From: Eledone cirrhosa
Taxonomy: Eukaryota
NCBI GenBank assembly: GCA_964016885.1
Contig: OZ024743.1
Span: 178,250,001 to 178,314,000 of the forward strand
DNA: 64,000 nt
Reading direction: 5' to 3'
Below the pieces are notes generated by a model. The model did not search any database. It was not told where the DNA came from and saw nothing but the letters and a program-made list of their open reading frames with translations. Shown here piece by piece: positions 7,497-52,357 of the stretch; position 1 is the first letter of the stretch, and each line of letters opens with the position of its first letter. Both the position numbers and the translations under genes were made by a program.

Positions 7497-7789
7497 TGTA
7501 TGTACGTATGTATGTACATATGTATGTATGTGTATGTATGTAAAATATATGTAGTAGAAGTCAGTCATTGTGATTACTTTGATAGCTAGCTTATTTGAAA
7601 AGAATAAGTGGTTGATAATATTACACATTGGTTAATCAATATATTGGTCGTATTTTAGAACCTTTAATGTTGATAACAATATCTATAATTGATTAGAATG
7701 ATTGGTTAGAAGTCCACATCAAATATATATGTGTCAGTTTTTAAGATAATAATTGTATGAATTTAGACAAAGACACATAGCACATCAAA

Positions 7790-10163: not shown

Positions 10164-10168
<5 letters not shown>

Positions 10169-11947
10169 TATCTATCGGACCAATTCCAAATCATGCGTTC
10201 CATCCATCGGGGATGCCCTCTCTCCTTCATTCTGTAGGTACTGGCTCTCGAGCCATTACTGCGGAAGTTGGAGCTGTTGCAGGGCATCCCGATCGAACCA
10301 GGACTGCGGAAAGCAGCGCTGGCCTATGCCGACGACATAACCGTAATGGTGTCAAACACCTCGGAAATCGCGGTAATTGGCAGCCTATTACAGTAATACG
10401 AAACGTTGACAGGAGCAAGACTAAACCCAAACAAGTCTGTCGGTTTGCAACTCGGCACATGGAGAGGCAAACCCATGCCTTCCGACAGTGTCGTTGGACG
10501 CTGGACGGAAGGACCGGTGAAATTGTTCAGGGTCTGGTTTGGTCCAGACCTCCAGGTGGAAAAGAACTGGAATGAGGTCATGGCGAAGGTGTTTGCACTT
10601 ACCCAGAAGTGGGCTGAGTGCAAATTCTCCTTGACAGGTTGAGCGGAGGTGGCGAACACTTACATAGTGTCTGTCATCTACTTCCGCTTGACAATCATGC
10701 ATTGTCCCCACGAATACCTCACCAAATTGGAACGCCTACTTTTCAAGTTCCTCTGGAAGAAACAGGCTCCATTGGTGAGAGATCCATCTGCTGTCAACAC
10801 CCTTCTAACAGAGGGCTGGGCATGCCGTGGCTGATGATGTGCAAACACGCGCTGAGGCTACGCCATCTCCAGGTATTCCTGACCAGTGAACCGGTGTGGC
10901 TGTCGTTTCTGAGACAAGCTCTTCCACAACTCATCTCACTAACAGAGCTGCAGTCCTGGGTCAAGCGAAGACCAAAAATGGGTGCCTGGCACCTCTGGTG
11001 CCTTCAGGCGCACACAGCCCTCTACCAAGCGGAAACGGCAATCAGCGGAGACTCCACTTTGACATTCTATAGGGGATTAGTGGGGGATGAGTGCGACGAC
11101 GTTCTCGGGGAAACTCTAGACATCGAGGAGGACGAACTGACCAGTCCGTTTGGGAGGACTTTCCGTCCAGGGCCTATGGATAACTTCCAGAGGTCTCTGG
11201 CCTGGCAGTGCTACCAAGGAGCTCTACCAGTTCGAGACAAAATCTACAGGCACGGACGCCCTGGCAGAGATCCTGCCAAAAGGACCTGTCCAAGATGCGA
11301 GCAGGAGATCAAAACCGTTCTGCACACAATTGTTCAGTGCCCAGGGGTGACAGACCTGTGGAATTATGTCGAACAGCTACTGTCACGTGTGGGACGCATC
11401 CAGTTGTCATCCGAGTCCACCGTGAGGAACAACCCGCCACCTTCATTTAAGAATGAAGGAGAGGCGGTTTTCCTCTGTCTGGTGGCTATGGTAAAAGAGA
11501 TAATATGGTGGATTAGGTTAAAAGGACTGAGGGCAAACACCTTTCTCTCCGGACAACAACTTATCCCCTTCTTTAAGTACCACTTCAGAAGGAAGGTGAG
11601 AGTGGAGAGAGAGGTGCTACACCCCAGTAAATTCGCTGAAAGGTGGGAGAATGTGGCGAAAATGGCCCGAGGGAATGGGCCTTCTCTGTATATAAATCTG
11701 TAGGTTGAGGAAGATAAACAGGGGGAAGACGGGAACACGTACAAAACGTGTTCCTGGTGTTGAGGGTTGTTCTATTCACGGGGTGTAAAACAACCCTGCA
11801 GTAACGTTCCCCCCTACTGGGGATTTCAATTGTTATTTTATAATATATAATTTATTGTTATTTATTAATGTTAAAGTTATTTTTATGTAAAACCCCCGTC
11901 GTCACATCTTGTAATGTCCCATTTTTGTACGCCCATGTGGCAAATAA

Positions 11948-12789: not shown

Positions 12790-14825
12790 CTGGTGGCACA
12801 AATAAAAGCACCCAGTCCATGCTGTAAAGTGGCGCTGGTGTTAGGAAGGGCATCCAACCAGTGTATCAATGCCAAAACGCTTATCAGCACAGCTACAAAT
12901 AGGAAGAACAACAAAATATGAAGACGTCGCATCTCAGAGTTGCAACACTTAATGTTGGCACTCTCAGAGGTAGATCTGCTGAAATAGTGGAGATGCTGGA
13001 GAGAAAGTAGGTGGATGTGTGCTGCGTGCAAGAGGTGAGATGGAGAGGTGCCTCTGCGAGACTAGTCTTAGGCAAACGTCTTAGCTATAAGCTATTCTGG
13101 GTAGGTAAGGATGATGGGTTAGGGGTAGTAGGCATTTTCCTGGCTGAGAAATGGATCAATAAGACAATAGAGGTAGTTCGAGTTAGTAATCGAATAATTA
13201 AGCTTAGATTAGTTGTAGGCAGGAGACTACTGACAATCATCTCGGCCTATGCTCCCCAAGCAGGCCTAGGCAAAGATGAGAAAGACTGCTTTTATGAGCA
13301 ACTTTTACAAACAACCGCAATGACAGAAGACGGAGACATTGTTATGCTAGCAGGAGACTTCAATGGTCATGTTGGACAGCTCCAGGATGGTTACACTGGG
13401 GTACATGGTGGGCACGGTTACGGTTCAAGAAATGAAGGAGTGAGACTTCTTGGATTTTGTGATGCAGGTACATTGACTATTTGCAACACAAACTTCCAGA
13501 AACCTGCCAATCACCTGATAACCTACAAATCTGGTGAGCACATAAGCCAGATTGACTTCTTACTAGTTAGGCAGCGGGACAGGCAGATGATGTCAAATAC
13601 CAAGGCATACCCTGGGGAAGAATGTACCCCACAGCATAGGTTAGTTGTTAGTGATATCTCAGTAAGCAAGAGATGGAATGAGACATATAGGAAGGTGTGG
13701 AGAAGAAAGGTCTGGAAGCTAAAAGACCTTTCACTAAAATACAAATTTAGGAAAGCCCTTCAAGATGTATATGACGAAAAATAAGACAATTTAGAGACGT
13801 ATGACATAGATAATAACTGGAATTTCTTACGTGACAACTTGCTGCAGGCTACAGATGAAACTTGTGGCTGGAGCAGAGCTCCAACCAGACAGAGAGTGAC
13901 CTGGTGGTGGAACAGCACAGTAGATAAGGCTATTAGAGACAAAAGACTAGCATGGAAGGCTTGGAAAAAGGGTGGGAGTAGGGAAGAATATACAGCCACT
14001 AAGAGAGAAGCTAGACGTCAGGTGTACTTAGCATGCAGGGAGGCAGAGAGTAGGAGGTTTGCCAATGTTCTGCGACGGGAAGATCAAAGGCGTGCGGTGT
14101 TCCACGTTGCAAGGCAGTGTGTCAATGCAAATCAGGATGTTGTTGGAGATAAATGTGTCCAGAATGATGCCGGTGTACTTAGTGTCACGAATGATCAGAA
14201 AAGGGAGGCCTGGAAATGTCATTATGAGAGACTGATGAATGTGGAGAACAAATGGGAGAGAGAGAAATTACTCTTGATAGATCCGACAGAGGGACCAGCT
14301 ATTGAGATTGACGAATATAGGGTCCAAGAGGCGATTAGGGAAATGAAAAATGGTAAGGCTGCCGGACCATCGGGAATAGTTTCTGAGATGCTGAAGGCAT
14401 CAGGGGACGTAGGCACTAAACTGGTTGCACGCATCATCAATCAGGCTATATATGGTGGTGTCATACCCAAAGACTGGTGCAGCAATATTCTCATAAATTG
14501 CTACAAAGGTAAAGGGGATGCTCTGGAGAGGAGCAATTATAGGGGTATAAAACTGATGGATCAGGTTATGAAAGTGTCAGAAAGGATTTTAGCACAACTA
14601 ATTAGAGAAAGAGTCAAACTAGATGAGATGCAGTTTGGTTTTGTGCCTGGGAAGAATACAACAGATGCTTTCTTCTTGGTGAGACAATTGCAAGAGAGGT
14701 TCTTAGAGAAGAATAAGCCACTATACTTAGCCTTTGTTGACCTAGAGAAGGTCTTTGATAGGGTACCCCGATCTGTCATCTGGTGGTCCCTAAGGAAGCT
14801 AGGTGTTGAGGAATGGCTTGTGAGG
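12790..14825 (+). mobile_element. 3'-truncated RTE-clade LINE (APE plus N-terminal RT), pseudogenised
   Basis: ATG 12918 MKTSHLRVATLNVGTL, GDFNGHVG, QHRLV, YRGIKL, FVDLEKVFDRVP; in-frame stops at 13008 and 13782; cut off by a fold-back at 14826. Confidence 0.92.
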
Positions 14826-15329
14826 ACATGTGACAGATAATACAAGAGAATAGTCTAATAATTAAATAATAATAATTAATTATTAGACTATTCTCTTGTA
14901 TTATCTGTCGCATGTATTCCACTCTGTGCCTTTAATTTTAACTTTAACTTTAACTTGAATTTGAATTATTGTACAATTCCGTATAATATATATCACATGC
15001 ATTACACCCTATATATACTAAACTGTTGTTCACAACATCAATATATATGTATCTATATGATTATTCAGTTAAATAGGTTAATTATATGTACAAACATTGA
15101 TAATGCTCTGATGACTCCAAACTAAAATTTGGAAGAAACAATTGTCAGCGATTAAATGATTTAAACATAACTTTGATACTTGTGTAATCTATATTACTGC
15201 TCTGTAAAATAACTGATGTTCTTACATTGAGCTATTTCTCTTACTGGTAATAAGGTAGTAATAAATTACTGACCTTCCCGGTTTATAGTTGTTTACATTA
15301 TAGTATATACATAACTATAAATAGTATCT

Positions 15330-15335
<6 letters not shown>
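14826..15335 (+). mobile_element. Non-coding Penelope/retrozyme-like element with fold-back 5' end and hammerhead
   Basis: 40-bp inverted repeat 14826-14915, hammerhead 15101-15154, conserved hairpin 15199-15232, ends in (TA)n; 3' part recurs at 17171-17320. Confidence 0.65.
15101..15154 (+). ncRNA. Minimal type-I hammerhead ribozyme
   Basis: (AAT)GCT-CTGATGA-C-TCCAAA/TTTGGA-A-GAAA-C-AATT-G-TC-AGC(G)ATT; GUC cleavage after 15146; palindromic loop III. Confidence 0.8.
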
Positions 15336-15403
<68 letters not shown>

Positions 15404-15413
15404 TATATCATAA

Positions 15414-17157
15414 TCTATAAAGCTCAGTGTATGGACATGCTCCTTTGTTATAGAAATTCTACGATATAGAATTTCTTCAATTGAAATTTACAATTCAGTA
15501 TTCGAAATAGCTTCGATTGCGTCTTGGCACATATAATGTTTTCAATTTCACCCACAATTACGCAAAAAATAGATAAAACTCAATATTTTACGATTTTTAC
15601 TCTCTCATTTAAACTGCTAAACTCTTTCCATTACCATTCAAAATCTATACAACTTCATACTTTCTGCTACTTTCTCTTTCCAAGCTTGATGGTGATACTT
15701 TCCGTTTTACTCTCTCATATCATCTGCTACCCTCTATCTACAAACCACACATTTTGCTACTTTCTCTTTTATACTTCAAACTTACTGATTTATTTCCAAA
15801 CGCATACAAACACACACTCACTTCAAATGATAAAAAAACATTTAAAGCAATTAAACAACGTGCGTGATTTATAACCACACTAACTTTTAGTTGCTTTAAA
15901 CTTAATGATTTATTTACAAACACATACAAACACACACTCACATAAATTGATAAAAAAAAATGTAAAGCAATTAAACAACGTTGGGATTTATAACCACAAA
16001 TACACGACTATTCATTAATGTCATTTCTTACACTCACTTCAAATGATAAAAAAATATTTAAAGCAATTAAACAACGTGCGTGATTGCCGGAGAGAGAGAA
16101 GAGAGTGAGAGGGAGAGAGAGAACGTTTATTATTACATAAAGTACCAGTAATGTACTGGATAATTGCTGGCCTTGTGCCAAAAAAAGTAGAAACAATTAT
16201 TACATTTCATACGAAACGACAATTATTCAAAAGCAACAGATACATTTATTCAACAACAAGCGATAAATCTTTTTTAAAACCTCTCAACGAACGTGGATTC
16301 TTACAGACTTTGAGTCGAATCGGTTTGAAATTGTGCAAATGTATAAACATGGAACATGTGCACACACACAACAACAACAATCTGCCTTTTATAGATAATG
16401 ATAAACAATAATATCCTCTATGAGGTCACTAAACCTGCTAGAAACAGCAGCTAACTCTCCCCCATACCACACCCCTCCCTACTGTCTTAAATTTAGAAAA
16501 CATATCTTCTATGAGGTGACTAAACCTGCTAGAAACAGCAGCTAACTCTCCCCCATATCACACCACTCCATACTGTCTTAAATTTAGAAAACACATATCC
16601 TCTATGAGGTTACTAAACCTGCTAGAAACAGCAGCTAACTCTCCCCCCTATCACACCCCTCCCTACTGTCTTAAATTTAGAAAGCATATCTTCTATGAGG
16701 TCACTAAACCTGCTAGAAACAGCAGCTAACTCTCCCCCATATCACACCACTCCCTACTGTTTTAAATTTAGAAAACACATATCCTCTATGAGGTCACTAA
16801 ACTGCTAGAAACAACAGCTAACTCTCCCTCATATCACAACCCTCCCTACTGTCTTAAATTTAGAAAACACACAGACAACCATGCAGAACAACTCCATCGC
16901 AGCTCTGTTGTTCGGCTGGCATCGTCTACACGCGTGTTGCGCAAGTACTCTGAAACAATAAATTTCAACACTTTTTTGCACAGAGATAATATCCATAGAC
17001 GAAACTACAATTGTCACTGCTGGCGCAGCTCCTACTTCCAGGTCTGCAATTCATTCATCCAGTGCCTGGCAGACAAAATAGTGCTGCCATAAAATGGGTG
17101 GTGCAACCTAACTTTGGTAACTTAATGACCCCGAGCAACGCCGGGCTTTAATGCTAG
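15414..17157 (+). mobile_element. Non-autonomous Helitron
   Basis: A|TC start; 3' hairpin CCCGAGCAACGCCGGG then CTAG|T; internal tandem repeats. Confidence 0.8.
16411..16870 (+). repeat. Tandem array of five ~92-bp units
   Basis: ATATCCTCTATGAGGTCACTAAACCTGCTAGAAACAGCAGCTAACTCTCCC...CTACTGTCTTAAATTTAGAAAAC at 16411, 16502, 16595, 16687, 16779. Confidence 0.92.
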
Positions 17158-17316
17158 TATATATATATAATTGCTCTGTAGAACAACTGATGTTATTACA
17201 TTGAGCTATTTATCTTACTGGTAATAAGGTAGTAATAAATTACTGTCTTTCACTGTTTAGGGTTTAACTATAAAAGGTTTTAGTATATACATAACCATAA
17301 ATAGTATCCTTAATAC

Positions 17317-17368
<52 letters not shown>

Positions 17369-17802
17369 TATGTGTATATATATGTATCATCATCATCATC
17401 TTCGTTTAACGACCATTTTCCACGCTAGTATGGGTTATACATATCAGTAATTGAAAACCAGTGAAAGTATGTCAACAGGATTGTAGTTTTATGTTTGTTA
17501 ATCAGTGTGTATTTAAAGATTATTAACAAAAGAAAGAAAGAAATAGCTACATATTTGAAAATGAGGAAAGAAAATATGTTCACATTATCATCATCATCAT
17601 CATCAATGTCGTTTTAATGTCTGCTTTCCCTGCTTTTATTGTTTATGGTTTCACATTAAATAAGAATGATCAGCAAGACTAAATGGACTAAGTTGAAATG
17701 TTTGAAGTAATAACAACTTAAATTCAACTAATTTGATGTGGTAATTTTAGACATCATCATTATCATCACCATTTAACTTCCATGCTAGCATGGGTTAACA
17801 AT

Positions 17803-18246
17803 TTAGCATTTACATTACTTTATATTTACCATTGTATTTTCACAGTAAAGGCTTCACCTCACATGATATCTCATATTATCTTGAATCTATGTGATTTTGA
17901 TATTATTTATTTTGAGAACAATACCCTAACATAGATATGAGTAGCAAGTTATGGCCAGTTTGAACAGAAAGAGGTAAGAAAATTCTGGCCGGATACGGCC
18001 GGTTTAAATACTAAAGGGTTAACCCTTTAGCATTTACATTACTCTCTATATACTATTGTATTTTCATGATGAAGGCTTTATCTTACATAATTATCTCACA
18101 TAATATTGAATCTATGAGATTTGTATGTTATTTATTTTGAGAACAATACCTTTACATCAGCTGAGTGGCCAGTTACAGCTGGTTTGAACAGAAAGAGGTG
18201 AGAAAATTCTGGCCAGATACGGTCGGTTTAAATACTAAATGGTTAA
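17803..18246 (+). mobile_element. Two tandem piggyBac-like MITEs sharing one TTAA
   Basis: Junction TAAATACTAAAGGG-TTAA-CCCTTTAGCATTTA at 18019-18022. Confidence 0.8.
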
Positions 18247-18519
18247 ATGAGTTGCCCTGTTGTGAGATAAGTTTGAACAGATCACCATGTCTTTCTCATA
18301 GAGGACTTATTTTCAAGCATCATTTTAATAATTTTCTAATGTAATTCAATCTATAAATGTGATTAAATGAAAAAGTGAACTAATAACAATGAATAGAACT
18401 TTCACTCTTCTCAACTTTCCTTATCTTATCAAGTGCATGTGTGCATTGATGTTCTCTTTGCCTCTTACAGAACTGTTTTTGTATCTGAATTTAAAATGTC
18501 AAGGGGCAATTGTAATACA

Positions 18520-18709
18520 TTGGTGGATTGGCAGTATCGGTAGAAGGTCGGACACCATGCTTTGATGCATAGAGTTACGGCCCTTGCCATTCTGAGTTCA
18601 AATCCCGCTGAGGTTAACTTTGCCTTTCATCCTTATGGGGTCAATAAAATAAAGTACCAGTAATGCATTGGGTAATTGCTGGCCTTGTGCCAAAAAGTAG
18701 AAACAATTA
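18520..18709 (+). mobile_element. tRNA-derived SINE (family of 8171)
   Basis: Full-length homology to 8171-8359; short TSD ATACATT. Confidence 0.85.
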
Positions 18710-20627
18710 TACATTACCAATCTCATCTAGATAAGAAAAGTTGATCATAGCTTAAAATATTCATTGAGACTCTTATACATTAACATATTGTATGTCTTCA
18801 TATACATAAATGTATTTATATGTCTTCATATTATCTACGCTATGTTAGTGCTACTGTTAATTAATCTTAACCATGCAAGTTCACATCATCATTATTATTT
18901 CCATCATCATTGTCGTTTTAACGTCTTCTTTCCTTGCTAGCAAGGGTTGGATGGAAAATTATTTTTCTTCTTTGGGGATTGAACTCTTTACACTTTGTGC
19001 TGTTTAAAATTTACACTTGTGTAACATGCAGTTGTACCAAATAACTGCTCCCCCCACAAAAAAAAATAATGTTCTCTTTCTCTGTGTATTTCTCTCTCAA
19101 TAACAATAACAACAACAACCTGTCATTATAGTGAAAGTCTTATTTAAATCTGTATTGCATTGTCTATATGTTGCAGAACATACAGAAACACACACAGACA
19201 ACCAATAAAAAAAAAACCTCTGTATTCTTTTCATTTGTTTACACATTATGTTTTAGTTAGTTAGAGAGGGGGGGGGGGGGGGTGAATGAAAGGTGGAGTA
19301 TTATTTTTATAGTTACTATAATATATATATAAAAATGAGAAAACTCATCACTAGAACAGCCATTAAAGCAGCCAAATGCTGTTAAAAACTGCAATGAGCA
19401 AAAATACCTCAGATGACAGAGATCAGTGGCTGATATTGAGACAATCCATGAGGTGAGTGATGGGCAGACGAAATATAGAAAATATTGAAAGAGGAGGAGG
19501 ACAAGGAGAAGTGTGTAGGCGCTTAAAAGTGACTGGAAGGAGAAAATAAAGAAAGGCGAAAGTTCACATACACACACATCTTCACCCTCATTAGTTCTCA
19601 AATAAGCAAAATGGTTTCACATGGTTTAATTGAGAGTACCGTTTTTAAATGCTGGATCATGCAACAGAAAAATAAATCACTCTGCTGGTATGATGTGTGT
19701 GTGATAAAACAAACAGCACAGAAGGAAGGATGAAAGGAGACACGGAAAAGAAAACAACAGGATAGTGGACCTGAAGCTACGGTGTCTCTTCTAAATAGAA
19801 AGCTAATCATAGTTATGAAAAAACATATTGTTGTCTCTAATCAAGACAAAATGAGAGTGTATTTGAATATATATAAAAATTAGAAAATTCATCATTAGAA
19901 CAGCCGTTAAAACAGCCAAAAGCTGTCAAAGACTGCACTGGGAAAAAATGCCTCAAAGTACAGTGACCTGTGGCCAGTGGTTGGCAGAGAGAGACAATGC
20001 TTTAGAACCGCTGTATTTCAGTACGGTGTCCCTAAAGACTTCCTCAGGAGTTATGGGACCACACATGCATGTAAAGTATTTTACAAAATACTAATGATGA
20101 ATATATCAAAACTCTGTCTAATTTTCTGGCTAAAACAGTTTTAGTAATTTTATAAGAAGTTGGAATCATGGAATTGTTTTGTTAATTATGTCCTCCTTAA
20201 TGTAAGGTTTGAAATTTTCACCAAGAGTATTCTATGTAATTTACTTGGCTGTGTTATTAATGACAATATCAACTTAAAACTGAATTATGATTTTACAATG
20301 TGTAAGACAGACTGCTGGGGAATAATAACATATTTTGATTCTGCTGAAGTAATATCAAGGGGAAATTATTTTTAATTTTGATTCAGATAATTTCTCTCAA
20401 ATTGAATTTTTTCAATCAAGGAAAAGTAATTTAATTTCTTCCATTATTCTCTATTCCTTATTCTCTCTTTGTAAATCTTTAACTTGTAATAGAAAATATT
20501 CTGTTGAAATTAGGTAATTATTTATTTGAAAATGATATATTTAAATAACAATAATTTGATATCAGATCATTCATATTTTGATAGAAGTTCTATTGGCCCC
20601 AGAGATTAATATTTAGTTGATTAATCA

Positions 20628-21000
20628 GCAGAAAGGCCTATCTTCACAGCTATAAATAGCACTAACGCACCAGCATGACAGCAAACATTACAAAGTTAGA
20701 CTTCCAAAAGAAAGGTCTAACTTCACAGCTACAAATAGCAATAACACCCCAGCATGACAGCAAACATTACAAGGTTAGACTTCAAACTGAAAGGTCTAAC
20801 TTCACAGCCACAAATAGCATTAACATGACAGCAAACATTACAAGGTTAAACTTTCAACAGAAAGGTCTAACTTCACAACTAAAATAGCACTAAAATGACA
20901 GCAAACATTACAAGGTTAGACTTTCAACAGAAAGGTCTAACTTCACAACTACAAATAGCACTAACACATCTCAGCAAACATTACAAGGTTAGACTTTTCA
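20628..21000 (+). repeat. Tandem array of ~5 units of 70-79 bp with an internal hairpin
   Basis: ATGACAGCAAACATTACAAGGTTAGACTT..AAAGGTCTAACTTCACAGCTACAAATAGCA at 20675, 20754, 20825, 20895. Confidence 0.9.
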
Positions 21001-21289
21001 ATTTCACTCACAAGATACTTCAAACTGGGATTAAACATGGGAATCTTGTGTCTGTAGAGCAAACAGGAAAATCACTCAGCCAATGTTGTGGGTTCGAATC
21101 CTGAAGTCTTGAACTCTGTCACTTCACACCCTGAAACCAGGATAAGCACCAACCTGATGAGCCTCCTGGCTTCAGACAGATTTTAGACTTTAGAAGCAGT
21201 TGAATAAACAAAAAAAGAGTACAAAAGGAGTTCAAAATTACATCTTCAAGAAAATACCTCATATTCATTCACCTTCGGTGATCATAACC

Positions 21290-21960
21290 TTGGCCAAGAT
21301 GTGTTGCTGTACTCAGACAATATCCATCAATCATTGTTTTCGACCCTCAACCATAACAACCTTTTACTGGTGGGTCAGAAGTAGTCACCAAATTACTGCC
21401 CATCTTGGCCTCCTAGCTTCAGCTTATCTCCAAAGCCAATAAAAGACATCTTCTGCTGCCTCCCCATTTTGCGAACTGTAGCCTGCTTCTCAATTCCTGT
21501 AATTCCAAAGGCAGTGAGCATTTTCCATACCAAGTGAGCCGGAAATCCTCTGTAACCCCCCTTGACAGGAAATAACCATGACTGCCAACCTTTCTCCCTA
21601 AACTCATGCACAAGTTCTTGATACTTGGCACCCTTTCACTCAATGGTGTTACTGTACTCTTCTTCCCATGGGACTGCAAGTTAAATCAGGATTATCTTTT
21701 TTATCCTTTCAGACCAAATGACTATATCTGGACCGAGGGATGTTTGAATAACCTGGGGAACTGCAACCTACTTCCCAAACCAACCCTTATATCTCATGTC
21801 ATGATTGGGCCCTTTGTAGTAGACCGCATGCAATTCTAATTGTCATAGATGGCTTCTCTCCCTCTTTCACAAACCTGATTGATGGTGTTGGTTTCCTCTG
21901 TGTTTTGTGTTCCTTGCATCTAAATAGCTCATCATCCTCCTCCCTTCACCCTCCATTTAT
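21290..21960 (-). pseudogene. HERO/R2-group LINE remnant (restriction-like endonuclease)
   Basis: PDIVIWSERIKKIILI*LAVPWEE...KGAKYQELV...GWQSWLFPVKGGYRGF. Confidence 0.8.
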
Positions 21961-22389
21961 TCTGTAGCCCCAGAGTCCTTGCTTTTCTTCTCATATTTGG
22001 CTTTTATATTCTTTTCCTCTACTTTCCCATACAGCCAGATCTGTTCTTCCTTACCCCTTTCCCATTTTCTCATTATGTAATTTTGCTTTACTCTTTCTTT
22101 CTCATATTTAATTCACAATGGGATTTGGTTTTCATGATGCTATTACATGTCTGTATGTAGTTTAGTATCAATAGTAACAGTTTGCTGTTGCAAGCTGCAA
22201 GTATATGTTGCCATTTAAAATTTTCGTTTTTTGCCAAAACCACTTCATTACTTTGTATTCATGAGTGCTGCTAAAACATTTGTATGTACATTGTATGTTT
22301 CTAAATTTAAGTAACAAATTTTTCTGCAATAAATTTTATTAAATGACTTTAATTAGTTGTAATGTGCACAGTTGTTGTGTGCAGCCCTC

Positions 22390-22600
22390 AGACATCACAT
22401 ATGTCAATGACATCTTGCGTAGTTTCCCAGTCCACTCCAATCCTCTGGATATCTTCTTTGAAAGTTGAGCACCAGGTTTTCTTGGGTCTCCCTTTTTCCA
22501 TTTGTCACTGACTGGAATCTCATTGCCAAAGGAGGTTCCGTTACTCAGACATGTGCAGAATGTGTCCAGCCAGTTTCAGACACCATTCATCTACTACTAT
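22390..22600 (-). mobile_element. RTE-type LINE 3' fragment
   Basis: LKLAGHILHMSE...GRPKKTWCSTFKED. Confidence 0.65.
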
Positions 22601-24211
22601 CATCAGTAAATTCTAAAGAAGCCATTGGTTGGTGTTAGGAAGAGGATCTAGCTATAGGAATTATGTTGAATATGGCATATAATCAACAAGATTGGTCACT
22701 CCAACCACTCGGGTATTGGACTGTGATAATCTGTCCATCTAATGCCAGCAAGCAAAAGAATGACGATGATGATGATGGTGGTGGTGGTGGTTCTGGTAGT
22801 GGTTGTGGCGGTAGTGGTGGTGGTAATTGTGTTGGTTGTGGTGGTGGTGGTGGTGGTGGTGGTGGTGGTTGTGCTGATGATGGAAGTTGTGGTGGTGATT
22901 GAGGGGGGGGGTGACGATGGCTGTGTTGATAGTGGTGGTCTAAAACTCTAGAGTGACTCACTATTTAGCTTTAATAAATATATATATAGCTAATATGTAT
23001 TCTTTTATTCATGAAGGCGTAATTCTGATGACATTTATTAAAAGATTCACAATTGTGAGATTGCAAGTTCAATTCCCAAACTGGGTGATGTTCTTAAGCA
23101 AGACACTTTATTCTCAGATTGCTCCTTCTGCCAAGAATTGCATCCAGTAGATAGTATCAGTAATAGAAAGACCAATAGAAACATTGTATCCTTGGTCTGA
23201 TTTGATGAATTCCACCCCACTCAGTAACCAAATGAAGCCTGGGATCTTGTCTATCTATCAGATATATATATATAATACTTGCTGGCACCATACAATAAAA
23301 AGTGACAGCTAATTGTAGTATTTTATATATAAAAATGGTACAAAACAAAGGTTTTAGTTTAATAATTCTTTTATTACAAATTTTTTTGTGAAAAACCTAT
23401 TTGCAAGTAACATAGATAACCAAGATAATATCTTGGTATACATATGTAAACATTTATATGTATGAGTATATAGATATGAACACACATACACTCACGCAAG
23501 TATAAATATATTTACACAAACACTCATACCCACACACATACACAAGTATAAATATTTTCACACAAACACTCATATATGCACACACATGCAGTCACACATT
23601 AATACTAGCCAATTCGCTAGATATATACTCAAACAAGTGTAATGCATCTTAGAACACTAGTCGGGAGGGTCTATAGTTGTCACCCCCCACCCCCAGCCCC
23701 TTCTTCCTCAGTCATCTCCCTTTCAGTGAGTGATGACAAATTTATAAATAAATGAATATACACACATTCGTTATTATTATAGTTGATTCTTAAAACACTG
23801 TTTAGCCCTACATGTACGAGGTTTCTAGTTAATAATTCTGAGATATGCATAAACATAACAGGATCTTAGACATAATTTTGAATAATTTATATGAGAAATC
23901 AATGTTTACATATAACCTTATAGACAATATTTCACCTCACAATAAGCTGGGTCAGTCATCTGTTTCTGATTTCCATGTGAATCAATTCCTATGGATGGTT
24001 TGCTAACATCATAAATCTATATTTAGGTATGAATTCAATATTTATATATTTCATCTTATTTATATTCAAAATTCAAAATTATTATATTTGGTAGGGATTG
24101 AAAATTAATATATATTCTGCATTATATCATAATCTCTAGAAATCTGGATCTATGTAGGAATTTAAAATGTTTATTCATTGCATGTTTTATGATATACAAC
24201 ATCACCACTGG

Positions 24212-24490
24212 CTGCCACATGGCCTAACAATTAGGGCGTTGGATTTACAATCATAATGTCAGCAGTTCATTTCCTAGACAGGGTGCTGCATTGTATTCTT
24301 GAACAAAACATTTTATTTCACATTGCTTCGGTACACTCATCTGACTGTGAGTATTAGCAGTAGGTGGGGAGTTAATTCTGCAATAGACTGGCATCCTGTC
24401 CAGGGAGAGTCTTGTATTCTCAGTGGCTTAATGCCAAGAAATAGGGATTATCATTGACCTGATACGCCTTTGACTTAGAACAGACCATGC
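24212..24490 (+). mobile_element. tRNA-derived SINE, second family (Meta/V-domain-like)
   Basis: TGGCCTAACAATTAGGGCG head; ATAGACTGGCATCCTGTCCAGGG core; related copies near 29300-29460, 39155-39290, 40420-40550, 47100-47341. Confidence 0.7.
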
Positions 24491-24712
24491 ACACTTATGT
24501 TGGTGTATGTGCCACACCACACCACATCACACTACACCCTACCACTATACCACCACATTACACCTCCACACCACACTACACCACACCCTAACCCTAACCC
24601 TAATTGGAGTCTTTTCTGTTTAAGTCTGAGTGATATTGGACACAGACTTCTATAGATTGTTTATCTGTTTGGATGTGACCAAGCAGCTCAGATTCTTCAC
24701 TCTTCTGAGTAA

Positions 24713-24905
24713 TAATTGTTTCTACTTTTGGCACAAGACCAGCAATTAGCCCAGTGCATTACTGGTACTTTATTTTATCGACCCCGTAAGGATGAAAGGC
24801 AAAATTAACCTCAGCGAGATTTGAACTCAGAACGTAAAGGGACATAACTCTATGCTGCAAAGCATGGCATCCAACCCTCTAGTAATACTGCCAATTCACT
24901 GCCCC
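24713..24905 (-). mobile_element. tRNA-derived SINE (family of 8171)
   Basis: Reverse-complement homology to 8171-8359. Confidence 0.85.
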
Positions 24906-25620
24906 TTTTGTATGTGAGATAACGTGCTTACTCTGAAAATACAATAGTAAATATAGAGTAATGTAAATGGTGAAGGGTTAAAGTCGGTTATTTGGATATG
25001 TAAGCTTTAGAAAAGTACATTTTATAAATGTGATGGCAGTAACAGCACCGGCTTTTATTTAGCCCATGATTGATCAGACCTATAATATTGTTTAGCCCAA
25101 GTTTAGCCCATGACTGAGTAAACCTATAACATTGTTTAGCCCATGAATAACATTATTTAGCCCAAGTTTAGTCCATGATTGAGTAAACCTATAACATTGT
25201 TTAGCCCAAGATTAGCCGATGATTGATCAGATCTATAATCATCCAGTCTTTTTTAAATGTCTTTCCCTAAACTATTTTCTGCAATTTAAAAGGGAGGCTT
25301 GGCTGCTATTTCTAGCAGATAGAGCTGCCATGTTTTGATTCATGTATTGCTGGTTATAATGTTGGCTGCAATGACAGCAATATTGGATATCGTGGTGGTA
25401 GTGTCGGATGTAGTGACAGCAGCAATAGTAGTGTTGGTAATGTTGGTGGTTGTTTTCTTCTTCTTCTCCTATACTTCCATTCCTGAAGCAGAATGACCAC
25501 TTTACAGTGTGGACCAGGACATTTTGTCATGCCACCAAGGATGGACTGGGTGATTCTTGTTGTGTCAACATCATGTGTCACCAAGGTTGGGCTAGGTGTT
25601 CATTATCTATTATCATATAA

Positions 25621-25840
25621 GGGTGGTGGATTGGCAGTATCAGTAGAGTGTCAGACACTAGTCTTTGTAGCAGAGAGTTATGGCCCTTTACGTTCTGATT
25701 TAAAATCCCACCAAGCTTAGCTTTGCCTTTCATTCTTACGGGGTCGATAAAATTAAGCACCAGTCATGCACTGGGGTAAATTTAATCGACTTTCCCCTCC
25801 CCCAAAATTGCTGGCCTTGTGCCTAAAGTAGAAACAATTA
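25621..25840 (+). mobile_element. tRNA-derived SINE (longer variant of the 8171 family)
   Basis: Same head and core with an extra ~30 bp before the tail. Confidence 0.8.
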
Positions 25841-26430
25841 TTTATCATCATCATCATCACCATTTTACGTCCATTTTCCACACTAGCAAGTGGGACAAAC
25901 CCATCTAACCCATGTTAGTGTGAAAGATAGACGTTAAACGATGACGATGATGATGATGATATATATATAGACACACACACACACATATGAAATAATAAAC
26001 CAATCAAAAGGAAGCTTATTGAAAGGAAATATTCCAATCCATCATATAATTCATAGTTAATTCTGTTATTAAGACAATGTTGTTGTATTTGATTGAGGTA
26101 CAAGTCAAAAGAAAAGTGCCAAGAGCAGAGTAAAGTAAAAATACAGGGTGCTTAACTACTCATAGAGTCATAAGGGTGCTATCATCACACAGGAGGGTGT
26201 TATAGGCATTTAAATCTGGCATGAGTCCATCTCTCGCCCAGTCCAATACAGTCAATTTCTTCCAGAGAAAGAAAGAAGAATAAAAGTGACATAGGAATTA
26301 TTGGCCCCACTACTGGACTAGTACTTTATTTATAGACCTCTAATGGATCAAAGGCAAAGTTGACTTCATCGGGATTTGAACCAAGTGCTTGGAGAGTCAT
26401 CTCACCCAATAAAGCATGAAATATAGACAT

Positions 26431-26843
26431 TCAACCTTTTAGTATTTAAACTGGCCATATTTGGCTAAAATTGTCTCCCTTTTTTCTGTTTAAATTGGTC
26501 GTAATCAGCCACTTATACCTATGTTAAAATATTGTTCTTAAAATAACCAATAACTGTTTCTACTTTAGGCACAAGGCCAGCAATTACCCAGTGCATTACT
26601 GGTACTTTATTTTATCGACCCCGTAAGGATGAAAGGCAAAGTCAACCTCGGCGGGATTTGAACTCAGATCGTAAAGGGACGTAACTATGCTGGAAAGCAT
26701 GGCGTCTGACCCTCTACCGATACTGACAATCCACCGCCCTAAATAACCAATAACATCATCAAAATCTCAGTAGATTTGTGATTATGTGAGATAAAGCCTT
26801 TACAGTGAAAATAGAATAAATATAGAGTAATGTGAAGAGTTAA
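26431..26843 (-). mobile_element. piggyBac-like MITE containing a SINE (26554-26739)
   Basis: Homology to 18019-18246; SINE flanked by TSD AAATAACCAATAAC. Confidence 0.78.
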
Positions 26844-27111
26844 ACAGTGATGATGATTATAATATGCACTTGCCATATAATCAATTCTTTGTTTTGTTAC
26901 ATAGCAATGGATGGGCATATATGCTGATCTAACTTACAATCACATTGTGTGATTGTACAAAGCTCTATTTGCTACTAAGAATAAATAAATAAAAGAATGA
27001 ATTCAAAATGTTAAATAATTTGGTTTGATAAATCTTTAAAAAAAAAAATCATTCTTTTTCCTTTTCATTTCTAGCTTAAATGGTGTTGATCTGAAATGAA
27101 TAGTATGTATT

Positions 27112-27931
27112 ATACAAGGAATGTTGAAAAAATATCCAACTTTATTTCTTTTATCATGTGAAAGGTAATGATGTTAAGGAGACAAAAGTGTGTATAGTGG
27201 AGCTGCATATATTAATGCACATGTACAGCTTCTGGTGAGCTGGCTGACTGTGTCAGTTACTGTCAGGTTGTCAGCATGAGCCTCTTATTTATAGAGCAAG
27301 ACACCTACTCTCAAGTCATAGCTGGTTGTTCCCAAAATACAGATGAAAGGCTCCTGATTTTAGAGCTGAGAGGATATCATGTAGATTGCTTTTTCTTGTC
27401 ATATGACATATACACAATAGTTAGAGAGGCAGGTTGAGAACGGCAAGCCAGTCTAAGGTGTCATTTGTAGCATTATGGATTGCCTCCAAGGGGCCAGGAA
27501 AACGCCTGGACAAGATGCAGTACTGTCTGGTCAGGGTCCACCCTGTATGGAATTTATGCCAGCTAATACCATTGTTCAATATATACAGACTGCAATGGTG
27601 GAGCTTAAAGCCATCCTGAAAGAAGTATTTCAGAAGTGTATCAAATAGTGGAAGGATTACTGGGCTAGATGTGTGGATGCACAAAGGGCCTAATTTTGAA
27701 GGGAATAGTCAATTAAACCCCACTAAGTACATGCTTTTTTCCCTCAGCTTGAGATTGAATACATTTTTGACAGACCTTTTTCTTCTTCTCCCACTTCTTT
27801 CCGGGAGGGTTGTGGGAGCAGAGTCCTCAAACACTTCTTCCAGCGGGTCCTGTCAGAAGCAACCATCTCCAACTGATCTGGCTGGATCCCCATGCAAGAC
27901 CAGCCAACTCATTTTTGGGACAGACCTCGTA
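27112..27931 (+). mobile_element. Deleted mariner element with an RTE 3' fragment (27778-27909, minus) in its right TIR
   Basis: C-terminal LKAILKEVFQKCIK*WKDYWARCV..FEG; duplicated CATTTTTG(G)GACAGACCT; insert translates GIQPDQLEMVASDRTRWKKCL. Confidence 0.65.
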
Positions 27932-28304
27932 TGAAAAAAATAGCAGGAAAAATATCAATTCCATCAATTAGAATATTTGTTTGTTGGCTTTTAAGCTTGT
28001 ATACATCACAGACACTGTTTTTACATGAAACATTCACATCCTTTGGCAGATTAAGGTCATAAAAACAACCCTTCTCAATGGTCGGAAATAACAAATTTTA
28101 TTAATTGCTACTTGAGGAAATCCCACTTCATAATTGTTTTTTTTTTTTTATTTGAAATATGTGCATCCTGATGCAAATGACCATAATAATAGTTAATCAC
28201 TATAATTAATTGTTGAGGAAATTAGGTAAAGGATCTCTGGAGTGTAAAGAGACCCCTACAAGGAAGTGCCTCTGTACACTCTTTTTGCACTGCGAGAGAT
28301 CCTT

Positions 28305-28678
28305 TACTCTTGGGTCCCAAATAATAAGAGTGGGGGCAGTTGGATTAAGAGGAGGGGGAGGGGAATCAGTAATTTTTCTAGGTTGTCTCCATTGATTTTT
28401 TTTAAAAACCAGAATTAGTTGTTTAGTTTACATATTGAGATCCCCAACCCATCCTATTTATTTTTTACATATGGGACTTCTAGTAATGTCCTTTTTGTGT
28501 CATGTATAATGTTTTTTAATGTATAAATAACATTACTATTGCAGGAATGGTACCACTTAAAACAAAATTTCTCTAGGGATAGATTTGCAAAATTTATTAA
28601 GTGGAGTGTTGGAAAATATCTCCAAAATTAATAAGTGGTGATGGGGGTGGGGAACAATTATTAGAGACCAGAGAGCAT
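28305..28678 (+). mobile_element. Non-autonomous TIR element
   Basis: ACTCTTGGGTCCCAAATAAT ... ATTATTAGAGACCAGAGAG imperfect TIRs; second copy at 8868-9378. Confidence 0.55.
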
Positions 28679-29523
28679 CTGATTTTCTCAACTATTATTT
28701 ATAGTGATTGATTGATTATTATTAAGGTCATTTGCATTAGGACACACACATTTCAAGCTTCAAATTTTCACAATGCTTTTTGTGTGAACTATCTTGTATA
28801 TTTAAAACTTTTTTATTTGATAATGAGGGTATAAACAAGATATCAAATTATATTTATTTATAATAGATAATTTATTTTTTAAGAATACAATTTACAAAAG
28901 TAACAAGAAGAGGGAAAAAAGGAAGAGAATTAAACAATAAAAAAGTGGAGGAGAAATGGGTAGGGAGAAAACACAATTGATTGGATGGTATATCTCAGTT
29001 GTACCACAAAGCCAACATGGTGAAAATATTGTTGCAAAGAACAGCCAGCATTACCTGCTGCATCAGCTACTCCACTTCACAGGGTCTCTTTACACAAATG
29101 TGATTCCCTTCTAATTTTGGGGATGAAAACAACAGTATAGAGACCAAGGACACAAGAGGTCTGAATAGGGTCCAAAACAAAAAGGAAACTTTCAGTGAAT
29201 GCCTGGTAATTAGTCAAACAATGCATGAGATGGATTTAGTTGATTTCACACTCCTTTCTTTCCTCACTACATTAGTTAAAGTTTGTTATTTATCCCCAAT
29301 TTCCTTAGCACTAAGTGACTGAGAGTACAAGACTACCCCCTGAACAGGACACCCACCAGTCGATTGCAAGTTTAACTCCTCAGCTACTGTTGGTACTCAT
29401 GAAATAAAGTGTTTTTCTAAGAATAAAATACAGGAATGGAACTGACAACATTACGATCATTTTACTATATTTGAAAGCTTGCAAGCATGTGTAGATATTA
29501 TAGATATTAAATGAAGATGATGA

Positions 29524-29562
<39 letters not shown>

Positions 29563-29590
29563 TTTGTTTTGAAACAGCGACCGAGTTTTA

Positions 29591-29784
29591 AAATAGAAAT
29601 AGAAGCTTTCACCGTATTTTTGACTAAAGAAATTTTAGCCTGATAGTGGGGTTTAGAACCCTCTAAGAAATAGAAAAAGATGTACATCAATACTCATCTT
29701 TTTCCATTTCTTAGAGGGTTCTAAACCCCACTATCAGGCTAAAATTTCTTTAGTCAACAATATGGTAAAAGCTTCTATTTCTAT

Positions 29785-29787
<3 letters not shown>
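29591..29787. repeat. Long near-perfect palindrome (arms ~90 bp)
   Basis: AAATAGAAATAGAAGCTTT...AGAAAAAGATG, short loop, CATCTTTTTCC...AAAGCTTCTATTTCTATTT; between (TA)n tracts. Confidence 0.92.
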
Positions 29788-29836
<49 letters not shown>

Positions 29837-30444
29837 ATGATAATAAATAATAAGTACCCAGCCCAACCTTGGTGACACAAGACTGTGACACAACAAGAAG
29901 CACCCAGCCCATCATTGGTGACATGACAAAAAGTCCTGGTCCACACTGTAAAGTGGTCGTTTTGCTGCCATAATAAAAAGCACCCAGTCTCCACATTGTA
30001 AATGTGGTTGGCATTAGGAAGAGCATCCAGTCATAGAAACCAAGCTCGAAACAGTTCTGTATGAGCAAGACATGGTCATTTGATCTGATGTCTCACAATG
30101 GGACAACTCGTCTAACCCATGCTAGCATAGAAAAATGATGATGATGCTGATATACACATATATATGCAAAAAGTAAACTGAAGCAACAAAGCAAACAACA
30201 CAGTACAATGAAAAAATATATTAGCTTAATGCTTGGTATGGTAGGAAAAGTGTCTTTCTGTTTCAGACACTAGTCCTTCATCAGAAGATAGAATGTGAAA
30301 TAAAAGATGAAATAGAAAGATAGAGAGGAAAGAATGGAAAAAAATTTGAGAAAAAGCATGTGTATTTAGTCAGCCATTTTGTAAAATATATATATTTATA
30401 TATAGTTATAGGAATAACCAAAGAGTGCTTAGAAATACATTGTT

Positions 30445-30501
30445 TTATTAGCTAACAGTGTTTCATCCATACACAATGGCAGGAATCCTCAGAGCCTATA
30501 A
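30445..30501 (-). ncRNA. Type-I hammerhead ribozyme (inverted copy of 32163-32219)
   Basis: Reverse complement of the right-arm hammerhead. Confidence 0.72.
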
Positions 30502-32162
30502 ACATGAGTATATCAGTAGTTGCATGATCCATTGAGCTGCGTCACCAGAACAAGGTTAAATGACCAGCAGGGGGTCCCAAGGCCAGCACTATATGGAAAA
30601 AGGCAGAATACATGATGCACATAATGTCATAAAAGTTTAAAAATTAAAAATTACACCAAAAATTTATCACATAAATGGTGCAATAGATGATAAAGAGGTT
30701 GTGAGAGGGTAGCAAGGGATGAGTGAGGGTATTACTCAGCATGATCAGAAACAATAAGAAAATAATAAAAAAAATAATAATAAAAAAGTACAAAAATACA
30801 GAGATAAGAAAATAGATAAATATAAAAATACAAAACAATAAAGGAACAAAAAGCCCGGAAACCCCGTTGTGTGTTACTAGCGAGAGACTAATCTTTGAAG
30901 CTTGGAGTTAGTTGAATATGAATTGTGTTCCGGCTTTGATGAATTATAGAACCACACTCAAGGCAAAGTGCAGCACGGGATATTGAACTCCCGCCGACCC
31001 AGGAGGGTCACACCTGACTGTGAATGGATTGCAACCTACGGAGTCAATAATCTAAACGAAAACCACGTGGCGGAAATATAAATAACATAGCTGTCATTGA
31101 CAGATTTGGGTGTGAGTTATCTCTTCAATATATATCTATATACTCTACAGAAATTTGCACTCACTATAATAAACCCGCCTATTATTATAACAATATATGC
31201 TCATTCTGCCATATGTGATTCTGGAAGAGGAGTTTCCTATATACACTTTTTTCTATATGTAACGGAATTGCCATCACGATTTGTATTTACTGTGGTACAG
31301 TTGTATGCGGTGCGATACATTGGTTGAACGCCAACTTGGACATACAGTGAATTTCACCTGGCACGTTAGATTGAGAGACCGAATGTTTTCAATTTCCTCA
31401 CATCTGTGCCGGCTGTATATGTGCCATACATCTCTTTAACTCTTCGTACTTTCTTTTATTTTTTATTGTAGATTTTGGGTGTATATCCCAAACCGCCTAT
31501 GGTGATAGATCCCCTGGTTATAGGTTTTGGAAAAATAGTGTTATCTCACTTAACGTTCGGAACTGGAACATATCGATGTGGTTCGTAGGGTGCGGATATG
31601 ATAAGGCGATATAATTGGAGTACACTATCCCTCATATGGACTATCAAAAATGTAAGGCTGCACCGCTGCTAACCAACTATTCTTTTCACAGACTCATTCT
31701 TGCAAACTCTCTTGATCTGCCTGTAACCCTCTTTTTGCACTGCGTGTGGTTTGATGCATCTATGCTTTGCTTTGTCTTATATTTTTGGGGGGGTTTAGGG
31801 CTTTTTGTTCCTTTATTGTTTTGTATTTTTATATTTATCTCTTTTCTTATCCCTGTATTTTTGTACTTTTTTTATTATTATTTTTTTATTATTTTATTAT
31901 TGTTTCTGATCATGCTGAGTAATACCCTCACTCATCCCTTGCTACCCTCTCACAACCTCTTTATCATCTATTGCACCATTTATGTGATAAATTTTTGGTG
32001 TAATTTTTAATTTTTAAACTTTTATGACATTTTATGACATTATGTGCATCATGTATTCTGCCTTTTTCCATATAGTGCTGGCCTCGGGACCCCCTGCTGG
32101 TCATTTAACCTTGTTCTGGTGACGCAGCTCAATGGATCATGCAACTACTGATATACTCATGT

Positions 32163-32219
32163 TTATAGGCTCTGAGGATTCCTGCCATTGTGTATGGATG
32201 AAACACTGTTAGCTAATAA
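32163..32219 (+). ncRNA. Type-I hammerhead ribozyme
   Basis: TTATAGGCT-CTGAGGA-T-TCCTGC..GTATGGA-T-GAAA-C-ACT-G-TT-AGCTAATAA; 9-bp stem I with one mismatch; GUU cleavage after 32210. Confidence 0.75.
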
Positions 32220-32379
32220 AACAATGTATTTCTAAGCACTCTTTGGTTATTCCTATAACTATAACGGCTCTGTAGTATACTAGTTATCCTACATTGAGCG
32301 AAAACCACACTGTCATACCAAGGGCAATATATCTACATGTCTGGGCATATTGATATATTTGTCAACGAAATATATTATA

Positions 32380-51284: not shown

Positions 51285-52357
51285 TAATAATATCGAATCT
51301 ATGAGATGTTGATGTGTTTAGGATGATGTCATATCATCATCATCGTCGTTTTTATACCTGATTTTCTATGTCTCACATTTTGACTCACCACAACTCATTA
51401 GTCTTGTTTCTAACTCAATACACAATGCATTTATCATCATTTAAAGAGTGTGTATGTTTTTTGTGGTCGTATTTATTTTTTGTGGCATATAGACTCTTCA
51501 TCATCATCACTGTTTTACATCCATTTCCCATGCTGCCATAAGTTGGGCAGGTTGTCACATTCTGAGGCGTAACAGGTTGGGTGACTACATCCTGCTCATA
51601 TATTCTAGTTTGCCATGGTTGCTGTCTACTATTTCTACAGACCCCTCCCAGATTTTGGTGGTGCTTGTTTCCTGAGGCCGTTTGCTGTGTGCTGTCCCAG
51701 CACAGCTGCTACATGTGAAGCCTACATTCTTAGTTAAGCTTCCTGAGATCCCACTACATTTAATATATAAGCATTAAATTAAAACTCGATTGACACATAT
51801 ATATATATAAAATAAACATCAAACAATAACAGGGGATTAATTTAATGCTAATAAATTCTCGGATTTATCCCTTAGAATCTTTGAGCTTATTCTACAGGTA
51901 GTATGGCACATGTTTCTCAGACATGACATCCTTAATTTGATATACTGCTCCTAAATTGTAGAGCTATTTTCTGTGGAAAGGACTCGATTGCTATTTCTAG
52001 CTGTTGATAATCCTATTCACATCACTGGGTTGACGGTGGGGTGATGTGTATTTAAAAAAAAACTACATGTGCTTTTCGTCATTTCCAGATTTGCTTTTAG
52101 TGTGTAATCACAGATAGTTAAATCTCCTCCTTTGCTGAGGATCCAGGATTTGACATCTGTGATTTGCCGATTAATGGTGAAATATATTTCATTAATGAAA
52201 TATATACAAAGGAGATTAATCATTATTGCAAGGTATCTATATTTGAGGTTCTCGTTAAATTTTAATATGTTACCTACGTAACTATGTGTTTACACTCATT
52301 ACAAATTATCCCCTGTAATTGTTTGATGTCTTTATTTTATATATATATATATATATT

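Follow-up and report, generated by a model that had tools for sequence, protein, structure and literature searches.

A duplicated bulged hairpin marks both insertion ends of Penelope-like retroelements in Eledone cirrhosa and is a candidate start signal for reverse transcription

The window analyzed here is a 64,000-nucleotide (nt) stretch of the Eledone cirrhosa genome (assembly GCA_964016885.1, contig OZ024743.1, forward-strand positions 178,250,001 to 178,314,000). It contains the ends of two Penelope-like retroelements, elements 1 and 2, along with an inverted copy of element 2's own end, a solo tail, and a short noncoding element (Table 1). Elements 1 and 2 each carry a minimal type-I hammerhead ribozyme followed by a bulged hairpin, here called hairpin 1. 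In a full element, the order is a pseudo-long terminal repeat (pLTR) with the hammerhead, hairpin 1, a tail, a second hairpin (hairpin 2), the ATG of an open reading frame (ORF), a long 3' untranslated region (UTR), and a second pLTR. An earlier note, made from the letters of the window alone, had pointed out the two hammerhead-hairpin pairs, in which 53 and 57 nt separate the hairpin from the predicted point of cleavage, and a third hairpin copy in what we now recognize as the solo tail; all of these are in the sequence. Two features had been missed: a third hammerhead, which lies on the minus strand within the inverted copy, and the short noncoding element, whose hairpins lie at 51857-51886 (first base changed) and 51947-51964.

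Table 1. Penelope-like elements and their parts in the window
Feature	Position	Strand	Description
Short palindrome	14826..14915	.	Where element 1 is truncated on its 5' side (5' inversion)
Element 1	14876..15339	+	3' end (pLTR and tail) of a coding Penelope-like family
Hammerhead of element 1, minimal type-I	15105..15149 (core 15108-15146)	+	Predicted cleavage after 15146; palindromic loop III
Hairpin 1 of element 1	15199..15232	+	GCTC-inner stem-TT bulge-GAGC; opens the tail
Solo tail	17164..17319	+	Hairpin 1 at 17173-17206; (TA)n flanks both sides; no hammerhead
Inverted tail-less pLTR copy of element 2	30401..30865	-	Hammerhead core 30492, predicted cleavage 30454
Element 2	30866..32374	+	Final 1.5 kb of locus L064's coding family, comprising 3' UTR, pLTR, and tail
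Hammerhead of element 2, minimal type-I	32169..32213 (core 32172-32210)	+	Predicted cleavage after 32210
Hairpin 1 of element 2	32267..32299	+	
Short noncoding element, two hairpins, no hammerhead	51857..52342	+	Terminus in (TA)n

Elements 1 and 2 are almost certainly ends, truncated on the 5' side, of coding Penelope-like retroelements whose proteins carry Hydra-clade motifs. They were compared with genome loci fetched around pattern matches and by alignment queries (numbered with the prefix L). Element 2 matches, over 30866-32263, the 3' UTR of the coding element L064 at 90% and, being 3' UTR, contains no ORF. Element 1 matches loci L229 and L233 at 91%; its relatives carry the endonuclease end 1.4-1.8 kb upstream in 9 of the 30 best, and L383, a member of its family, shows the 5' end with hairpin 2 and the start of the ORF. 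The proteins of the two families are 45-85% identical over the stretches compared. Where the earlier note spoke of unrelated noncoding elements, we thus find members of diverged sister families. Its statement that the two share no other obvious similarity stands insofar as blastn finds none, but their ends are collinear over ~170 nt, from hammerhead to hairpin.

Autonomous elements that join reverse transcriptase (RT) and GIY-YIG endonuclease domains to the same hammerhead-hairpin cassette, which the earlier note had proposed looking for, are present in the genome. These include L061 and L198, in which a pLTR with hammerhead is followed by the hairpin, ~160 nt, an ORF of ~820 residues, a 1.5-kb 3' UTR, and a second pLTR. 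The ORF of L198 is a single frame of 819 amino acids (aa) with a telomerase-like RT plus, at its C terminus, a GIY-YIG domain. A homolog 38% identical to this protein (P0026) gives a structural model with a predicted local distance difference test score (pLDDT) of 90, and its best fold match is TERT (E of 2e-9). The endonuclease motif IY...YVG was recognized by inspection. Four stretches of own-genome protein searched in Pfam, and a sequence search of the PDB, returned no useful match; among the homologs, one carries PF00078 and one PF01541. The TA-rich repeats of the window have an octopus-like appearance, and among the 120 homologs listed, the sole one named to species is from Argonauta.

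Members of the Hydra clade are marked by DKT, a CxCX5C linker, CxxC and CxH motifs, a hammerhead in the pLTR, insertion into (TA)n, and a length generally under 3 kb (Craig et al. 2021, PMC8557442). The families described here have the same protein motifs, pLTR hammerhead, and (TA)n target, and their proteins resemble the published Hydra proteins by eye, which bears out the link to Penelope that the earlier note had drawn. The change from DKG to DKT appears as ADKT in L198 and L061 and as SDKT in L137; in L198 the linker reads CNCRANRTC, CxxC reads CNLC, and CxH reads CQH, around conserved E and N. The RWK position reads RWR in the own-genome families. As to the CCHH motif, which Hydra-clade endonucleases lack, inspection by eye showed no pair of cysteines lying between the GIY half and the YIG half, in contrast to L382, a locus of a second family. 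The families also differ from the published clade in size, with repeat units of 4.2-4.8 kb (4.19-4.78 kb), the excess lying in a 3' UTR of at least 1.5 kb. In a quick tree of own-genome and metagenome proteins, which has a long branch here, they cluster with 39 motif-bearing metagenome proteins, apart from L382; the row for L322 in this tree is probably another protein.

One family is very young, as judged from the many intact 832-codon frames with an identical score among the 150 of 17,172 candidates that were scored in a genome protein search; dozens of such frames, L198 and L200 among them, were seen. The second TA-targeting family (L382:693-9901, a 9.9-kb locus) is Neptune-like by motif and forms 4.15-kb tandem units between short (TA)n. 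In this one family the hairpin is absent both by pattern and by covariance model, though hammerheads are present. Penelope-like families also nest in one another's (TA)n, as at L061:2000-2040 and 7430-8010 and in L014, L066, L148, and L180.

The hairpin consists of GCTC, an inner stem, a 2-nt bulge, and GAGC. In the window the fifth inner pair is A-U, G-U, or G-C, as had been noted earlier. The window hairpins fold into the drawn structure but only modestly beat shuffled sequences (z of -1.7 to -2.8), so folding energy alone says little. That the hairpin occurs far beyond chance follows from its copy number: the 3.0-Gb genome contains 6,364 exact matches to the pattern given in the earlier note, versus 0 for the reversed control. 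With only the outer stem and bulge fixed, the counts are 23,987 and 545. The structure is also supported by covariation. Across 24 hairpins chosen for similar length (20 from metagenomes and 4 from the own genome), 94% of cells are paired, the four outer pairs are invariant, and four inner pairs change on both sides, with 0 of 500 shuffles reaching the score. The covariation that had been proposed as a check is therefore present. It also holds for hairpin 1 when related sequences are thinned to one member for each of 27 clusters at 65% protein identity: pairs 1 to 3 then pair in 25/25, 22/24, and 16/20 clusters, against 18.8, 13.3, and 7.4 expected (p 0.0002 each). In the quick tree, sister families differ by double changes (e.g., TGG/CCA versus TAG/CTA), and this was seen twice.

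A covariance model over 18 loci recovered several variants that the strict pattern had missed, and, built without the window's long hairpins, gave four window sites at E < 0.01, all on the plus strand. Rfam gave no match in the window at gathering score. A Helitron-type end and a selenocysteine insertion sequence (SECIS) were considered as identities for the hairpin and dropped, as it sits between the hammerhead and the RT ORF; we also take it to be without a SECIS core. The tails fold with ordinary energies (z of -0.1 to -2.4). A further stem-loop in mid-tail, conserved in place and not in sequence, was observed in L215 (2520-2545), L206, L199, and L064.

Hairpin 2 is a shorter copy of the motif (GCTC-C...G-TT-GAGC), found in L198, L201, L061, L199, L211, L215, L064, and L383. 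It lies 92-166 nt after hairpin 1, this being the length of the tail in own-genome families (55-83 nt in metagenome families), and about 20-70 nt before the ATG. Each reference sequence was taken from one natural copy, and alignment of all the fetched loci against these references gave 367 distinct ends. The counts below rest on 12 two-hairpin references and leave out 52 read-through copies and ends more than 60 nt upstream; reference N1b, which contains an inverted segment, was dropped. For the seven coding-family references, 130 of 134 (TA)n junctions lie 2-9 nt upstream of a hairpin, as do 27 of 32 for the five noncoding references. Among loci not chosen by tail-end queries, the corresponding figures, at -9 to -2, are 64/67 and 8/10. 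Ends outside (TA)n fall in the same interval in 8 of 11 cases for coding references and 1 of 15 for noncoding ones, the latter ends being mostly subfamily breaks.

The hairpin pair thus marks both insertion ends, the tail-less end at hairpin 1 and the tailed end at hairpin 2. The window itself has examples of each. Element 1 terminates in (TA)n about 5 nt ahead of the place for hairpin 2, and element 2 in TA-rich sequence 3 nt before it. The inverted copy beside element 2 corresponds to 31790-32263 and terminates in (TA)n 3 nt short of the hairpin 1 position. The solo tail begins 9 nt ahead of hairpin 1 and stops 5 nt short of where hairpin 2 would stand; at least five such solo tails were observed among the aligned genome loci. 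The palindrome at the start of element 1 breaks the reading frame of an RTE-like long interspersed nuclear element (LINE) at 13785-14840. A Penelope insertion unit is known to comprise a pLTR, an adjoining inverted 5'-truncated copy, and a one-sided tail of 30-40 bp (PMC8557442, PMC3846280). The layout and the one-sided tail are alike here, but the tail measures 55-166 nt and the same hairpin marks both of its boundaries. Inverted insertions gathered without bias have one tailed and one tail-less end in 10/10 cases. Among all 28 inverted pairs, like pairs (tailed with tailed or tail-less with tail-less) number 0; five include a read-through unit and four were unscorable.

At the junctions, extra copies of the first template bases are frequent, with (CT)n or a 7- to 9-nt unit repeated up to five times. 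Such copies occur at 12 of 59 junctions versus 0 of 86 interior copies (p 1e-5), while (CT)4 adjoins 27 of 910 other TA runs. A looser automatic count gave 18/121 versus 10/157 (p 0.03) but mixes in family variants; we prefer the stricter one. The repeats fit stuttering at initiation, or they may reflect later DNA slippage beside a microsatellite. Extra tandem copies beside hairpin 1 were seen in L149, L090, L027, L125, L062, and L055.

The earlier note had joined hammerhead and hairpin into a two-part module, and it is here that its reading gives way. The window hammerheads have the conserved core, helices I to III, and the NUH triplet, and are predicted to self-cleave; the Rfam hammerhead families give no match up to E of 10 in window positions 13000-34000. 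A hammerhead pattern has 15,131 genome matches versus 0 for the control, and many families have CCGA in place of CUGA in the core (e.g., L198:1800-1840). Among 80 distinct copies selected by hammerhead, 45 stop just before hairpin 1, 28 are tailed, 2 read through, and 5 are unclassified. The reverse case, hairpins without a ribozyme, is provided by a class of short elements. The hairpin 2 pattern has 2,222 genome matches versus 3 for the control, and more than half of 30 loci drawn from it are short units of ~470-580 nt that occur as partial tandems and inversions. The inner stem of their first hairpin is swapped, with AGA or GGA instead of TCT or TCC, and this swapped-stem pattern has 8,777 matches versus 1. 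Of 62 distinct swapped-stem copies, 0 have a hammerhead at the usual distance and 0 show protein similarity within ~1 kb. Seven whole short units lack a hammerhead on either strand and any ATG frame longer than 44 codons; apart from the hairpins, their similarity to coding elements is slight. The working unit is hairpin plus hairpin, not hammerhead plus hairpin. The hammerhead appears to be a separate part, dispensable for the step at which reverse transcription starts.

The short two-hairpin elements without hammerhead, represented by the one in the window and by L173, L188, L193, L203, L205, and L214, seem to be mobilized in trans, and it is possible that their autonomous partner lies outside the Hydra-type families. 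Kilobase arrays of an 11- to 12-nt unit flank a short hammerhead-less element in L384 (~2050-3110 and 4185-5290) and L173; the unit equals the foot sequence of hairpin 1 in the A families. Like MRC1 of Chlamydomonas (PMC8557442) and animal non-LTR retrozymes (bioRxiv 10.64898/2026.07.22.740005), these families are short and noncoding, with partial-tandem and inverted insertions; unlike both, they have no hammerhead and little in common with coding elements besides the hairpins.

The hairpin is not confined to this genome. An alignment of 48 homologs led to 78 metagenome loci, in 51 of which the match began at the N terminus; of these, the 38 with an ATG and at least 60 nt upstream were scored. 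The motif lies within 110 nt of the ATG in 32 of the 38, and two hairpins are present in 21. As background, it occurs 21 times on the plus strand and 7 times on the minus strand in 107 kb of metagenome ORF spans. The hairpin follows a hammerhead by 38-69 nt in 36 loci, which answers the earlier proposal to measure the spacing. Scorable 3' ends fall 0-6 nt before a hairpin in 9 of 11 cases, the other two being at -12 and -86. In the supplement of Craig et al. (PMC8557442), the motif is visible by eye in the printed consensuses Hydra-2_Amil (coral), Hydra-2_Ajap, and Hydra-1_Ajap (both sea cucumber), twice before the ATG in the last, and in degenerate form in Hydra-1_Crog. Naiad and Chlamys were considered as carriers and set aside: four 8-mers hit 17 places in that supplement, whose line breaks may hide matches, and the hairpin was found at only three, all Hydra.

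We propose, as a probable though far from certain reading of these sequences, that the bulged hairpin is an RNA signal bound by the element's own protein to start reverse transcription. This follows from the genomic ends, taken together with the internal starts of the Poseidon element discussed below. Genomic 3' ends would be RT start sites, and the hairpin 3' of each start would be the part that the protein holds. A read-through or tandem transcript would carry both hairpins. The protein would recognize the invariant GCTC/GAGC stem and the bulge, the inner stem being free in sequence and giving shape. After the GIY-YIG domain has cut a (TA)n target, the freed (TA)n 3' end could pair with 1-7 U/A bases immediately 5' of the hairpin, and extension would begin from this site, sometimes with stuttering over the first few bases. 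A less supported step is that two protein copies on the two hairpins of one RNA prime both cut strands, which would yield an inverted repeat with a one-sided tail. Duplication of the hairpin would in this way account for the Penelope tail, and short elements with only the two hairpins could be mobilized in trans. An RT signal, as the earlier note suggested, is likely, but its assignment to a trans-acting RT does not suit elements 1 and 2, whose families are coding. Small stem-loops held by an RT so as to set where copying begins include the template-positioning elements of telomerase RNA and the bulged epsilon stem-loop of hepadnaviruses. The likeness of our hairpin to these is by analogy alone, the best fold match of the element protein being TERT.

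Several observations weigh against this proposal. Protein binding, start sites, and cleavage all have to be deduced from genomic ends. The offset of those ends differs between families, from -2 to -9. Hairpin 2 often has a single inner pair, and its pair 2 pairs in only 13 of 23 clusters (p 0.07). The invariant outer stem yields no covariation and was demanded by the search patterns. The strict motif is absent near the ATG in 6 of the 38 metagenome loci, and among the printed consensuses it is not visible by eye in Hydra-1_Obim or in the 5'-incomplete Hydra-1_Amil (PMC8557442). Finally, in the Poseidon element tested in vitro, initiation falls within, not upstream of, an AC-rich stem-loop and involves no homology to the DNA that is cut.

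Alternatively, the hairpins may act in DNA, with the endonuclease recognizing them in single-stranded complementary DNA or in an extruded cruciform and cutting a longer intermediate a few bases upstream, whereby the ends would be set. Published work attributes the tail to endonuclease-mediated resolution (PMC8557442), the D. virilis tail is cited as needed for endonuclease cleavage (PMC11167929), and the opposite strand of our hairpins folds about equally well. We nevertheless regard this as unlikely, as the RNA strand favors G-U pairs and U-U mismatches. On the coding strand G-U exceeds A-C by 5 to 1 at pairs 1-3 of the metagenome set and by 16 to 5 at pairs 1-2 of the own-genome set, although at own-genome pairs 3-4 the asymmetry reverses (C-A 6, U-G 1), a further point against an RNA signal. 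In addition, the length of the spacer from GCTC to GAGC ranges between about 8 and 27 nt, as would not be expected of a duplex binding site, and junctions with added copies of the first template bases are what a start of synthesis would leave.

It is also conceivable, though quite unlikely in our judgment, that the hairpins direct formation of an RNA 3' end just upstream, by termination or cleavage, with RT starting from an ordinary RNA terminus. Such a role would predict identical genomic ends and an identical strand preference. However, internal initiation has been shown in another Penelope clade (PMC11167929), and separate cuts at hairpins 1 and 2 of different RNAs would not by themselves force unlike ends on every inverted insertion.

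A third explanation is that TA microhomology alone sets the ends and that the hairpin serves translation, packaging, or folding of the hammerhead. Most start sites do have TAT to ATATATA directly upstream of the hairpin, and the position of hairpin 2 shortly before the ATG would suit a role in translation. TA pairing alone is insufficient, however, because 19 other TATA/ATAT sites in the scored intervals of coding references took at most 4 ends, while 39 ends are at hairpin 2 sites without any TATA/ATAT 4-mer; better TA sites in the tail go unused and weak ones beside hairpin 2 are used. Elements with neither ORF nor hammerhead retain both hairpins and the same ends, and we therefore consider this explanation very unlikely. 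Least probable is that elements 1 and 2 are nonautonomous, retrozyme-like units of hammerhead and hairpin copied from circular RNA by a trans-acting RT: the fixed hammerhead-hairpin spacing and the proposed derivation of animal retrozymes from Penelope pLTRs (bioRxiv 10.64898/2026.07.22.740005) would suit it, but both are ends of coding families, an animal non-LTR retrozyme is a noncoding tandem repeat with a hammerhead in each unit, which neither these elements nor the short tandem families are, and noncoding relatives have no hammerhead, so that it is largely refuted for elements 1 and 2.

Returning to the hairpin as an RNA start signal, the closest experimental comparison is PAc, the Poseidon element of Anolis (Frangieh et al. 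2024, PMC11167929). In PAc two internal RT starts delimit the tail, targets are AT-rich, and cutting and extension affect both DNA strands; the protein is predicted to form a dimer, and cleavage by the hammerhead is dispensable. The PAc starts fall within one AC-rich stem-loop inside the ORF, and recognition has been traced no more closely than to the first 172 nt. Here, in contrast, each presumed start within the 5' UTR appears to be followed by a separate hairpin conserved in sequence, with 1-7 nt of potential target pairing. A more speculative extension, to which we give a good deal less credence, is that a portable bulged hairpin of 18-34 nt serves as RT start throughout this clade of telomerase-related elements, at minimum in molluscs, cnidarians, and echinoderms, that two copies let a dimer prime both (TA)n strands with telomerase-like stuttering, and that thousands of ribozyme-less noncoding elements of this genome are two-hairpin parasites of this system.

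Earlier work has already described the clade, how its insertions are laid out, their tail, the minimal hammerhead, and nonautonomous derivatives of Penelope. The window hammerheads share with the published minimal type-I form (PMC4209133) the long helix II, the short helix I, the tiny palindromic helix III, and the unpaired base beside stem II; a word search of that paper's available text gave no mention of a downstream hairpin. Likewise, the word "hairpin" occurs 0 times in the main text of PMC8557442, although three of its six printed consensuses clearly carry the motif and a fourth has it in degenerate form. In agreement with the earlier note, which did not recognize the motif, we found no description of the hairpin or of its duplication in literature searches or in the available text of PMC11167929, PMC8557442, PMC4209133, PMC3846280, and bioRxiv 10.64898/2026.07.22.740005, a scope that leaves aside subscription papers and Repbase notes. 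Penelope-like proteins are the closest relatives of telomerase, and how they choose RNA and why the tail is one-sided are standing questions, with one element studied in vitro. With a hairpin that covaries, is duplicated, and predicts both insertion ends across dozens of divergent families, mutagenesis and structural work become directly possible, and this genome supplies many near-identical intact ORFs for such experiments. The hairpin can also be used to annotate element boundaries, along with a large class of short repeats that would otherwise be anonymous, and it lets the hammerhead's role be told apart from that of the start signal.

The remainder of the window is rich in other repeats. 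An RTE-like LINE occupies 52647-64000 in tandem 3,637-bp repeats, and an interrupted relative of it lies at 13011-14840. The minus strand carries, at 427-5406, a LINE with two ORFs and an open frame of 1,153 codons, which has an older inverted relative on the plus strand at 10166-11705. A 320-codon frame at 35621-36583 presumably represents a fragment of a Helitron or Pif1-type helicase. Smaller arrays comprise a 91-bp array at 16411-16871, a 138-bp near-perfect inverted repeat at 29620-29757, and a 68-bp satellite in 29 copies at 45160-47131.

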